In this document: one piece after another, positions 23,755-25,690 of the stretch
How the letters are laid out: every line of letters starts with the position of its first letter
How positions within the stretch are numbered: the stretch's first letter is position 1
The notes under the pieces: generated by a model
The model's database searches: none
Told to the model about the DNA's origin: nothing
What the model saw: only the letters and a program-made list of their open reading frames with translations
Made by a program: the position numbers and the translations under genes
Source of the DNA: an uncultured Actinomycetota bacterium
GTDB lineage: Bacteria > Actinomycetota > Actinomycetes > Actinomycetales > CAWJMD01
Assembly: GCA_963825505.1 (NCBI GenBank)
Contig: CAWGTL010000018.1
Coordinates: forward strand, 66,137 to 130,136
Direction of reading: 5' to 3'
DNA: 64,000 nt

Positions 23755-24147
23755 GTGCACGTGACCGACGAGTTCTCGCTCGACGAGGCGCAGTCGCTGG
23801 CGAACTACGTCGCCTGGATGGACGTCGTCGAGAAGGACCTGTACGACACCGCGTCGTACGTGTCGAACGTGGTCTGCGGCGACGAGGGCTACCCGCTGCT
23901 GATGAAGCCGGTGGTCGACGCCCTCGACGAGGCGGCCTGGTTCTTCCGCGACATGGTCGACCTGTTCGTCGAGCGCTGGAACGCCACCGAGCAGACCCTG
24001 TTCGAGATCGGCCGCGCCTACGGGCAGGACGACGAGGCGGTCAGCCGGCTGTTCGACCAGAGCGACCTCGAGCGCCGGATCGAGATGCAGCAGAAGGCGA
24101 ACCAGGTGCGGCAGGAGAAGATCGACCGCGAGATGGGGCTCTCCTGA
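23755..24147 (+). CDS. Hypothetical acidic all-helical protein (about 128-130 aa), first gene of a coupled trio
   Basis: Track ORF. The alternative start GTG 23761 has better spacing to the aggggg RBS. There is no TM segment or signal peptide. A helix-turn-helix-hairpin-like layout is expected from the sequence pattern. Confidence 0.65.
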   Translation: MHVTDEFSLDEAQSLANYVAWMDVVEKDLYDTASYVSNVVCGDEGYPLLMKPVVDALDEAAWFFRDMVDLFVERWNATEQTLFEIGRAYGQDDEAVSRLFDQSDLERRIEMQQKANQVRQEKIDREMGLS

Positions 24148-25070
24148 TGTCCACGCGCTTCCGCAACGTCGACGCCGTCGTCCTCAACGTCCCCGACACC
24201 CCGTCCGAACCGTTCGACACGCCGGACAACCTGGAGGCGATCGACGAGGTCATCGAGATCGCGCGCGACGCCGCCAACACCCTGGGGTGGGTCGCCGACA
24301 AGATCAGCATGGACTTCCCGGAGTTCCCCGACGGCAGCATCCGCGAGTGGGTGATCGACCCGGTCACGGGGGACTTCAACAAGATCCTCGCCGGGGGCCT
24401 CGCCTGCGAGAACGCCGGCCAGGCGCTGCAGTCGGTGGGCAACAACATCGTCGCGAACAGCGCCAAGCTCGCCGTTGCGTGGACGGGTCCGGCCTCGCGC
24501 GGATACGTCCTGACCGCCGGCATCTACGCCTCCGTCGCCAAGGCGGCCGGGTTCCTCCTCCAGCAGATCGACGCCGTGTTCACCGGTCTGGGCTACGTGA
24601 GCAAGGAGCTCGGGGAGACCATCGCCTACCTGCTGGGCGAGCTGGTCGACCTCTGCTGGACGCTCGCCAAGTTCCTGGCCAAGAAGTTCGCCGGGGCTGC
24701 CGCATCGGTCGGCAGCTGGATCTGGGACGCGCTGCACGGCTTCGAGGAGGTCCGCGACCTCATCACCGACATCAAGAGCGCCTTCGACTCGCTGATGCGG
24801 CTGCTCGACTTCAAGGACGAGGTGAAGGCCTACTACGAGACGGCCAAGGCCTCCTTCGCCGTCTTCCAGGAGTTCAAGGGCCTGGCCGCCCTCCTTCCGC
24901 AGGTGGTGCTCGACCCCCTGCACCAGCAGGACGACCTGAAGCGCCGGCTGGAGCAGCTCGAGGACAAGATGGACAAGCGGACGAAGAAGGTGAACGCGCT
25001 CCAGGACACGCTCGACGGACGTGCCGACGACGGCGCCGACCAGGTCGACCAGGGGGTCCCGGACGCATGA
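24147..25070 (+). CDS. Hypothetical 307-aa helical protein with a WxG-type motif
   Basis: ATG 24147 overlaps the upstream stop (TGATG). The segment VTGDFNKILAGGLACENAGQALQSVGNNIVANSAKLAVAWTGPASRGY contains W112-T-G114 (TGG at 24480-24482). The C-terminal half has amphipathic helices, and the tail is coiled-coil-like (RRLEQLEDKMDKRTKKVNALQ). Confidence 0.7.
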   Translation: MSTRFRNVDAVVLNVPDTPSEPFDTPDNLEAIDEVIEIARDAANTLGWVADKISMDFPEFPDGSIREWVIDPVTGDFNKILAGGLACENAGQALQSVGNNIVANSAKLAVAWTGPASRGYVLTAGIYASVAKAAGFLLQQIDAVFTGLGYVSKELGETIAYLLGELVDLCWTLAKFLAKKFAGAAASVGSWIWDALHGFEEVRDLITDIKSAFDSLMRLLDFKDEVKAYYETAKASFAVFQEFKGLAALLPQVVLDPLHQQDDLKRRLEQLEDKMDKRTKKVNALQDTLDGRADDGADQVDQGVPDA

Positions 25071-25690
25071 GCACCGCAGGCGGTACGACGAGCGACGGGA
25101 CCGGCGCGGGCGAGCACGCGGCGGCGGACCAGGTGGTCGCCCGGCGCCGCGACGACGACGAGCAGATGCTCGCCAGGATCCGGGCGGTCACCGAGGAGGC
25201 GGCCGAGGCGCGCCGGCGCCGCGGCCCGGCCGAACCCCTCGACGCCGACGAGCTGGCGACCATCGACGAACTGACGTCGGCGCCCGACGCACGGTCCGGT
25301 TTCACGCTGCTGCGCAGCCGGGTCGAGGCCGGGGCGACCACCTGGGGCGCCGTCATCTCCGAGACCTACGAGCACGGCCCTGCCGCGCTGCAGCTGAAGC
25401 TGGCCGTGATGCAGCGGCTCTACTCCCGCGACGCCCTGCAGCCCGCTCTCGACCGGCTGAAGGAGATCGAGTCCGCCGTGCAGGCCGACCCGCAGGCCTT
25501 CTGGGACCGGGTGGAGGAGCAGCGCCGCGAACGCGACGCCGGCGGGTCCGGGTCCGTCGCCCCGTCGGACCAGCCGGCGCCGGAGGACCCCGCGGCGCCC
25601 GCCCCCCGTCCGGGCACCCTCGGCGGGGGTGCTCCCCCCGCCGACCCGCGCCGTCGCGACGACGGCTGGGGTGCCGGCTCGCGCGGCTGA
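25067..25690 (+). CDS. Hypothetical 207-aa protein with a Pro/Gly-rich C-terminal tail
   Basis: ATG 25067 overlaps the upstream stop (ATGA). The frame is that of track ORF 24287..25690. It has a helical core (LQLKLAVMQRLYSRDALQPALDRLKEIE) followed by a disordered tail. Confidence 0.65.
   Translation: MSTAGGTTSDGTGAGEHAAADQVVARRRDDDEQMLARIRAVTEEAAEARRRRGPAEPLDADELATIDELTSAPDARSGFTLLRSRVEAGATTWGAVISETYEHGPAALQLKLAVMQRLYSRDALQPALDRLKEIESAVQADPQAFWDRVEEQRRERDAGGSGSVAPSDQPAPEDPAAPAPRPGTLGGGAPPADPRRRDDGWGAGSRG

Follow-up and report, generated by a model that had tools for sequence, protein, structure and literature searches.

What kind of complex is encoded by three overlapping genes of an uncultured actinobacterium whose products resemble no named protein family? 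The genes, referred to here as ORF1, ORF2 and ORF3 (open reading frames 1–3), lie on the forward strand of a 64,000-nucleotide (nt) stretch of contig CAWGTL010000018.1, designated below the window. On the evidence of sequence comparison, structure prediction and analogy with characterized systems, this trio probably encodes a substrate or targeting complex of type VII secretion (ESX), belonging to a family without a name so far. This reading is preferred because the trio holds both halves of the type VII export signal together with a third conserved partner. The WxG (Trp-x-Gly) turn and the YxxxD/E motif form the export signature of type VII substrates (PMC6107294); the first is present in ORF2 and the second in ORF1, and it is on these two motifs that the strongest conservation falls. 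The features on which the argument draws are as follows.

23761–24147, + strand: ORF1, 128-residue acidic partner, putatively EsxB/EspC-like (alternative GTG start at 23755)
24019–24033, + strand: Y87-G-Q-D-D91 of ORF1, YxxxD/E-type export-arm motif (conservation among homologues)
24145–24149, + strand: TGATG junction, ORF1 stop TGA (24145–24147) and ORF2 start ATG (24147–24149) overlapping by 1 nt (read from the sequence)
24147–25070, + strand: ORF2, 307 residues, all-helical, with a predicted WXG-type domain
24360–24377, + strand: P72-V-T-G-D-F77 of ORF2, family-defining P-x-[TSA]-G-[DN]-[FYW] motif preceding the hairpin (in 98 of 113 members)
24375–24590, + strand: predicted WXG100-like helix-turn-helix, residues 77–148 of ORF2 (model, Pfam register, hidden Markov model)
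24480–24488, + strand: W112-T-G114 (WxG) turn of ORF2 (conservation among homologues, AlphaFold2 model)
25067–25070, + strand: ATGA junction, ORF3 start ATG (25067–25069) and ORF2 stop TGA (25068–25070) overlapping by 4 nt (read from the sequence)
25067–25690, + strand: ORF3, third partner of 207 residues (core conserved, Pro/Gly/Arg-rich tail variable)
25286–25345, + strand: ORF3 core motif D74-A-...-R-V-..-G89-..-T-W93 (96-sequence alignment)

An earlier note on this DNA, made from the sequence alone, had described three ORFs joined by these two overlaps, the first of them encoding a small and acidic protein, with products that lack a Sec signal, a transmembrane segment and a recognizable family, and all of these points are borne out. 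The three ORFs are clearly coding: third-position GC content is 0.99, 0.96 and 0.93 for ORF1, ORF2 and ORF3, respectively, against 0.74 for the window (overall GC content 73.7%), second-position values are 0.32, 0.39 and 0.60, and homologues with recognizable conservation exist for each of them. Because of this third-position signal and these conserved homologues, they are regarded as genes rather than chance ORFs. The 1-nt TGATG junction recurs in four distant loci (numbered L001, L005, L007 and L009) and the 4-nt ATGA overlap likewise (L001, L006, L007 and L009). In ORF1 homologues the first residues are MTDEF or MSDEF, which corresponds to a start at the second GTG, 23761, and to a protein of 128 residues. 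All three products are acidic (isoelectric points of 4.1, 4.5 and 4.8); none displays a signal-peptide-like N terminus or a membrane segment (maximum Kyte–Doolittle hydropathy of 1.44 in a 19-residue window), and none matches a family in Pfam or NCBIfam scans. A literature search, whose incomplete coverage leaves room for a prior description, retrieved no earlier account of the trio and no Pfam or DUF name for it. Scanning for promoters and terminators around the trio returned nothing, such a scan being uninformative at this GC content.

The case for a type VII protein is built most extensively on ORF2. A word-indexed search of 5.8 billion proteins retrieved 8 close relatives, one of them in Angustibacter speluncae, and a profile search of 1.84 billion cluster representatives extended the family to 115 clusters, 54 of them below 1e-10; repeating the word-indexed search with a 113-sequence alignment added almost no members. 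All sequences of this alignment share P72, and at least 90% of them share G75, the fuller family pattern being P-x-[TSA]-G-[DN]-[FYW]-x-x-I, with N100 also common to the family. The WxG is invariant among close and medium-distance homologues, and across the whole family the Gly is retained in 112 and the Trp in 90 of the 113 members. The AlphaFold2 model computed from the 113 sequences (mean predicted local distance difference test score (pLDDT) of 82.5, predicted template modelling score of 0.73) is all-helical with long helices, and places W112-T-G114 exactly at the turn between helices 77–111 and 115–184, the layout that the earlier note had proposed. A previous model derived from the 8 close homologues had a pLDDT of 41.7 and was discarded.

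Remote similarity to WXG100 proteins is found in the same place. When 68 members of the ORF2 family were scanned against Pfam, PF25547 (WXG100_2) was matched by 14 (best 1.2e-06) and PF06013 (WXG100) by 11, and the PPE family PF00823 was matched weakly by 3 (best 9e-04); those matches with displayed coordinates cover the hairpin register. The ORF2 of the window aligns to TIGR03930 (WXG100) over residues 88–121, with an E-value of 0.23 and 11.7 bits against a cut-off of 44.85. The family profile also retrieves weak matches to EsxA and EsxGH chains from the PDB at the hairpin region. The hidden Markov model (HMM) of the family scores Staphylococcus aureus EsxA at 25.4 bits, ESAT-6 at 12.1 bits and PPE41 at 11.0 bits, with the WxG aligned (maximum of 7.1 bits over 1,200 shuffled controls), model positions 77–151 pairing with EsxA residues 10–84. 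Judged by model and profile, the ORF2 hairpin is a remote WXG100 relative. It displays the helix-turn-helix with Trp-x-Gly in the turn that characterizes WXG100 proteins; ORF2 is nevertheless 307 residues long, as opposed to approximately 100 residues in that family, and no FtsK/SpoIIIE-type (EccC/EssC) ATPase is encoded nearby, either among the window ORFs scanned or in 126 related loci. ORF2 is not a strict member of the PE/PPE family or of the approximately 100-residue WXG100 family.

The YxxxD/E motif of ORF1, which the earlier note had missed, is the strongest single clue to a type VII function. Its Tyr and the Asp at its end are invariant among close homologues, and an additional set of 110 ORF1-like genes, taken from species-representative genomes, keeps the Tyr in 99 and the acidic residue (Asp or Glu) in 109. 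These distant genes, recognized by their position next to and upstream of ORF2-like genes, belong to a single family: L003_2, the Actinocrispum member, scores 66.9 bits with an HMM from which it had been left out. L003_2 itself matches the EspC family PF10824 at 4.9e-07, a match that the Pfam scan of the window ORF1 does not give. The ORF1 HMM scores CFP-10 end to end at 17.9 bits (800 shuffled controls at or below 7.2 bits), and in this alignment the YxxxD of the family falls on the YSRAD of CFP-10; Mycobacterium tuberculosis EspC scores 7.3 bits, at the same level as the shuffled controls, and a profile search of the PDB with ORF1 gave nothing meaningful. The alignment to CFP-10 suggests for ORF1 a helix-turn-helix with YxxxD/E after the second helix. 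In terms of sequence, ORF1 is a small EsxB/EspC-like protein, and it supplies the YxxxD/E partner expected of a type VII pair.

The third protein stands apart. In 96 aligned sequences, the ORF3 core (DAPxxLxxLxRKVDxGxxSW at the family level) is conserved at A75 in 99%, at G89 in 98% and at W93 in 100%, and the tail is variable. ORF3 has no match in Pfam, NCBIfam or the PDB. The idea that it might be a degenerate WXG-like hairpin is unsupported, as it shows no profile–profile similarity to ORF1 or ORF2 and no family match. By these comparisons, ORF3 constitutes a third conserved family, unrelated to the other two.

The earlier note had made its interpretation depend on whether the three genes travel together in related genomes, and this they do, with or without a neighbouring matrixin gene. 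A hand-built degenerate DNA pattern for the P-x-[TSA]-G-[DN]-[FYW] motif of ORF2 yielded at least 119 loci, all 119 of those listed encoding true ORF2-family members, from Lentzea (often two or more per genome), Nocardioides, Amycolatopsis, Saccharopolyspora, Actinopolyspora, Actinokineospora, Crossiella, Actinoalloteichus and metagenome-assembled genomes (MAGs). Further trio loci were found in Angustibacter, Nocardioides alkalitolerans, one Nocardioides MAG and two metagenome contigs. Overall, more than 120 genomic loci contain the trio, and their flanking genes are unrelated between lineages. Among the pattern-matched loci listed, 107 could be scored for an ORF1-like and 91 for an ORF3-like neighbour, as follows.

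ORF1-like gene directly upstream of the ORF2-like gene, same strand: 104 of 107 loci
ORF3-like gene adjacent downstream of the ORF2-like gene: 55 of 91 loci
ORF3-like gene 1.6–4 kilobases downstream of the ORF2-like gene, same strand: 22 of 91 loci
ORF3-like gene not seen in the DNA examined: 14 of 91 loci

An ORF3-like gene is thereby found downstream in 77 of 91 loci overall. One locus, in Actinocrispum wychmicini (L003:8677–10894), has the permuted order ORF3-like, ORF1-like (the EspC-matching gene) and ORF2-like. From the pattern of genes across genomes, the three are inherited as a unit and conserved together across orders. Immediately upstream of the permuted trio, in divergent orientation, is a gene for a secreted-type phospholipase A2 (PF09056).

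Fusions between the trio proteins are also observed. In Nocardioides flavus ORF1 and ORF2 are fused, and at least 18 representative clusters (411–483 residues) carry an ORF1-like domain ahead of an ORF2-like domain. In 20 fused proteins, the two motifs change together: 8 have Tyr or Trp at the aromatic position of YxxxD, all 8 with W-x-G, and the other 12 have an aliphatic residue or His there, all 12 with L/M/I-x-G. This covariation is compatible with a contact between both motifs, and, along with the fusions themselves, it lends indirect support to a putative heterodimeric helical bundle of ORF1 and ORF2. Two observations on gene structure may be added. In a MAG (MFD04935.bin.1.95; L086:2384–4030, − strand), the ORF2-like and ORF3-like sequences share one frame with no stop between them, a single case that represents either a fusion or a lost stop codon; in N. 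flavus a predicted lipoprotein of 191 residues with an LLSGCG lipobox (L008:11410–11985) is encoded between the fused ORF1–ORF2 and the ORF3-like gene.

The ORF2-like domain is also used as a module. In at least 26 loci, mostly of Lentzea, it forms the N terminus of a protein of approximately 1,000–1,200 residues in which a Pro/Gly/Ser-rich linker is followed by a C-terminal domain of approximately 270 residues without a Pfam match. In Lentzea flava (L035:1932–7327), for example, it occupies the first 300 residues of a protein of approximately 1,100 residues, followed by a repeat linker of approximately 450 Pro/Gly/Ser-rich residues (GLPSPPGHPSPS-type repeats) and the conserved C-terminal domain; 3′ of this gene lie a 373-residue gene without a Pfam match and then two tandem ORF3-like genes. 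This arrangement, which has the appearance of an effector preceded by a delivery head, has similar counterparts in L019, L020, L023, L028, L037, L038, L042, L043, L047, L055, L068, L076, L081, L085, L093, L109, L112 and L117. One further ORF2 relative carries DUF6531. The ORF2 of the window has no toxin domain; apart from its coiled-coil tail it offers only the conserved region of targeting type.

Taken together, these features suggest how the trio might work. ORF1 and ORF2 would pack into an elongated helical bundle, in which the Y87/D91 export arm of ORF1 would rest against the W112 turn of ORF2 and create a composite signal of the kind known from EsxA–EsxB, PE–PPE and EspB. ORF3 would bind the pair, acting either as its dedicated chaperone in the cytosol or as a third factor in targeting, a role modelled by analogy on EspD and EspH (for EspA–EspC and EspE–EspF) or on the second Lap protein of LXG toxins. 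An ESX-4-type system with its genes in another part of the genome would then recognize the complex through its EccC ATPase and export it. The window ORF2 is a stand-alone form; in relatives the domain serves as a module at the N terminus of proteins that have approximately 1,100 residues or that contain DUF6531. ESX-4 clusters are known in representatives of Pseudonocardiales, Propionibacteriales and Kineosporiales (PMC4791881), and eccB, eccC, eccD and mycP are present in Amycolatopsis (PMC11004387). WXG-type N-terminal domains have been predicted earlier to mark actinobacterial type VII toxins (PMC3482391).

The results support the structural and homology part of the earlier proposal of an Esx- or PE/PPE-like pair with a partner. 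A close parallel in composition is found in the EspA/EspC/EspD and EspE/EspF/EspH sets of ESX-1, which similarly combine a larger WxG protein, a YxxxD/E partner of approximately 100 residues and a third protein of approximately 180 residues away from the machinery. EspD and EspH act as chaperones of EspA–EspC and EspE–EspF, the third protein stabilizing or chaperoning the pair (PMC6107294), and the EspC match of L003_2 provides a link at the sequence level. However, the gene order differs (small–large–third in the trio, large–small–third in espACD), ORF2 shares no detectable similarity with EspA past the WXG hairpin, and ORF3 matches no family. For EspD and EspH a YbaB-like fold has been proposed. 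Moreover, the Esp proteins are mycobacterial, whereas the trio hosts are non-mycolate actinobacteria, expected to have ESX-4-type systems only. WXG100 proteins (EsxA/EsxB; PF06013, TIGR03930) and PF25547 share with the trio the WxG-turn helix-turn-helix, the YxxxD/E partner and a remote profile similarity, and differ in length, in curated score and in their position beside an FtsK/SpoIIIE ATPase gene. PE/PPE pairs resemble the trio in gene layout, the gene for a small YxxxD/E protein immediately preceding that for a larger WxG protein, and the occurrence of two or more trio loci in Lentzea species recalls the multi-copy nature of that family; EspB, a fused PE–PPE-like protein, is paralleled by the single-chain ORF1–ORF2 versions. 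In contrast to PE/PPE, ORF1 (MTDEFSLDEA) and ORF2 (MSTRFRNVDA) start without a Pro-Glu or Pro-Pro-Glu motif, the window proteins match neither PF00934 nor PF00823, there is no EspG-like gene, and the family occurs outside mycobacteria.

An architectural counterpart exists in the type VIIb systems of Firmicutes, where LXG toxins are accompanied by Lap1/Lap2 or Lap3/Lap4. As in the trio, an elongated helical domain with a hydrophobic-x-Gly turn has two small partners encoded beside it, and the domain heads large toxins, or putative ones, in both; the fused ORF1–ORF2 clade reading L/M-x-G even resembles LXG in this position. One Lap partner carries an F/YxxxD-type arm, as ORF1 does, and LXG-Lap-Lap assembles into a tripartite targeting complex that universally requires the acidic residue but can dispense with the aromatic one (PMC10801868). 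The likeness is architectural only: Pfam scans of the trio and its relatives yielded no match to PF04740, DUF3130, DUF3958, DUF5344 or DUF5082. Both Lap genes lie upstream of the toxin gene, whereas the trio has one partner upstream and one downstream; unlike an LXG toxin, the window ORF2 ends without a toxin domain, and its host is an actinobacterium (type VIIa).

Several results weigh against a type VII assignment. The window proteins themselves stay below every curated family threshold in Pfam and NCBIfam, and the WXG100 matches of ORF2 relatives mostly fall under the gathering scores (16–25 bits, with cut-offs of approximately 27). The comparisons with EsxA, ESAT-6, CFP-10, EspC and PPE41 rest on reference sequences entered by hand. 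The Foldseek search that the earlier note had recommended returned nothing significant from the PDB for the ORF2 model, its best matches being BAR/F-BAR bundles (E-value of approximately 0.01, template modelling score of approximately 0.3). The covariation in the fused proteins probably stems from few evolutionary events. ORF3 is unlike any known type VII chaperone in the Pfam, NCBIfam, PDB and profile–profile comparisons. Finally, as the earlier note had observed for the core genes, no type VII core family occurs among the 17 larger window ORFs covered by a scan that was not exhaustive, and a phmmer search with an FtsK query found no FtsK/SpoIIIE-type ATPase in any of the 126 related loci.

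The absence of type VII genes from those loci and from the scanned window ORFs, the BAR/F-BAR bundles at the top of the Foldseek list and the lack of a signal peptide would fit a helical-bundle complex that stays in the cytoplasm or at the membrane without ever being secreted, such as a scaffold or a membrane-remodelling device, its WXG-like hairpin being a structural relic. We consider this unlikely. Foldseek matches at these scores (E-value of 0.01 or above) are insignificant and generic for long helices, conservation is strongest exactly on both export motifs, and the ORF2-like domain heads large multidomain proteins, one of them with DUF6531, as is typical of exported toxins (PMC3482391). 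Type VII substrates are themselves devoid of signal peptides, and their genes often lie at a distance from those of the machinery, as exemplified by espACD (PMC6107294).

A toxin–immunity system, with ORF2 as a pore-forming or membrane-active helical toxin, ORF3 as its immunity protein and ORF1 as an adaptor, would account for a tightly coupled operon of small proteins, for the variable tail of ORF3 and for relatives whose C-terminal extensions and DUF6531 recall polymorphic toxins. It is nevertheless improbable: the window ORF2 offers no toxin domain past its targeting-type region and coiled-coil tail, ORF3 has no membrane segment, and ORF3 tracks the N-terminal domain of ORF2 whatever the C terminus, in stand-alone and approximately 1,100-residue forms alike, which fits a targeting partner and is unexpected for an immunity protein. 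Already disfavoured, and very hard to credit, is the view that a lineage-specific operon of unrelated helical proteins contains WxG and YxxxD by coincidence, since, short as the motifs are and without significant curated family matches as the window proteins remain, they are kept across at least 110 sequences at 20–30% overall identity, co-vary, and are joined by independent profile links, with shuffled controls, to WXG100, EsxA, EsxB and EspC.

The neighbours of the trio in the window include genes specific to its lineage. The earlier note had placed the operon between a matrixin protease and a sirtuin; both genes are real (matrixin, PF00413, at 22779–23597 upstream, and SIR2 downstream), but as parts of the system they are rejected, as they accompany the trio only in close relatives. 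Divergent from the trio lie a DUF4407 membrane/coiled-coil gene and an overlapping 399-residue gene without a Pfam match (20137–22697, − strand), and this pair occupies the same place in Angustibacter (L001 and L002), where the matrixin gene is absent. Because both units are present there without it, the matrixin gene is a later insertion between them. The SIR2 gene (25712–26638) begins 21 nt past the ORF3 stop, and on account of this short gap it may be co-transcribed with the trio in the window lineage; downstream of the trio in Angustibacter (L001:11509–17224) is an NAD-related run of SIR2, ADP-ribosylglycohydrolase and NUDIX/NrtR-type regulator genes. Also in the window (26676–28118, + strand) is a GmrSD_C/DUF1524 nuclease-like gene with a lipoprotein-type N terminus; its ORF extends over approximately 170 codons of Arg/Pro/Ser-rich, seemingly out-of-frame sequence, which may reflect a frameshift or a true stop located earlier in another frame. 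Farther away, an irregular-looking acyl-CoA carboxylase region (8753–15170) contains biotin carboxylase domains in a 398-residue ORF, a Carboxyl_trans match spanning only residues 298–500 of an 868-residue ORF, and an opposite-strand 591-residue ORF (10696–12471) without a Pfam match; a simple coding-potential caller left gaps in this region.

Our conclusion is that the trio represents, at the level of the family, a new variant among type VII substrate or targeting complexes, for which we infer complex formation, export and the role of ORF3. A broader proposal can be made tentatively: non-mycolate actinobacteria may possibly possess a tripartite type VIIa targeting module, widespread but hitherto undescribed, of which the trio would be an example. 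Its ORF1-like export arm, ORF2-like WXG protein and ORF3-like factor would be the counterpart of the Firmicute LXG-Lap-Lap complex, and the module would be used in two ways, secreted on its own, as in the window, or placed as a delivery head on large effectors. If this is true, ORF3 would found a new class of chaperones or targeting factors for type VII secretion, and the module would head the Lentzea proteins of approximately 1,100 residues and DUF6531/RHS-type effectors as their delivery unit. To our knowledge, what ESX-4-type systems export in actinobacteria outside mycobacteria is largely unknown. The trio provides a concrete and widespread candidate set of substrates, with Y87, D91 and W112 as testable point mutations and ORF3 as a candidate new accessory factor. 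Should the three-part arrangement be confirmed, heterotrimeric type VII targeting would be a principle of both branches rather than a Firmicute peculiarity, and would offer a handle on the cargo domains delivered by soil actinomycetes such as Lentzea, Amycolatopsis and Nocardioides.

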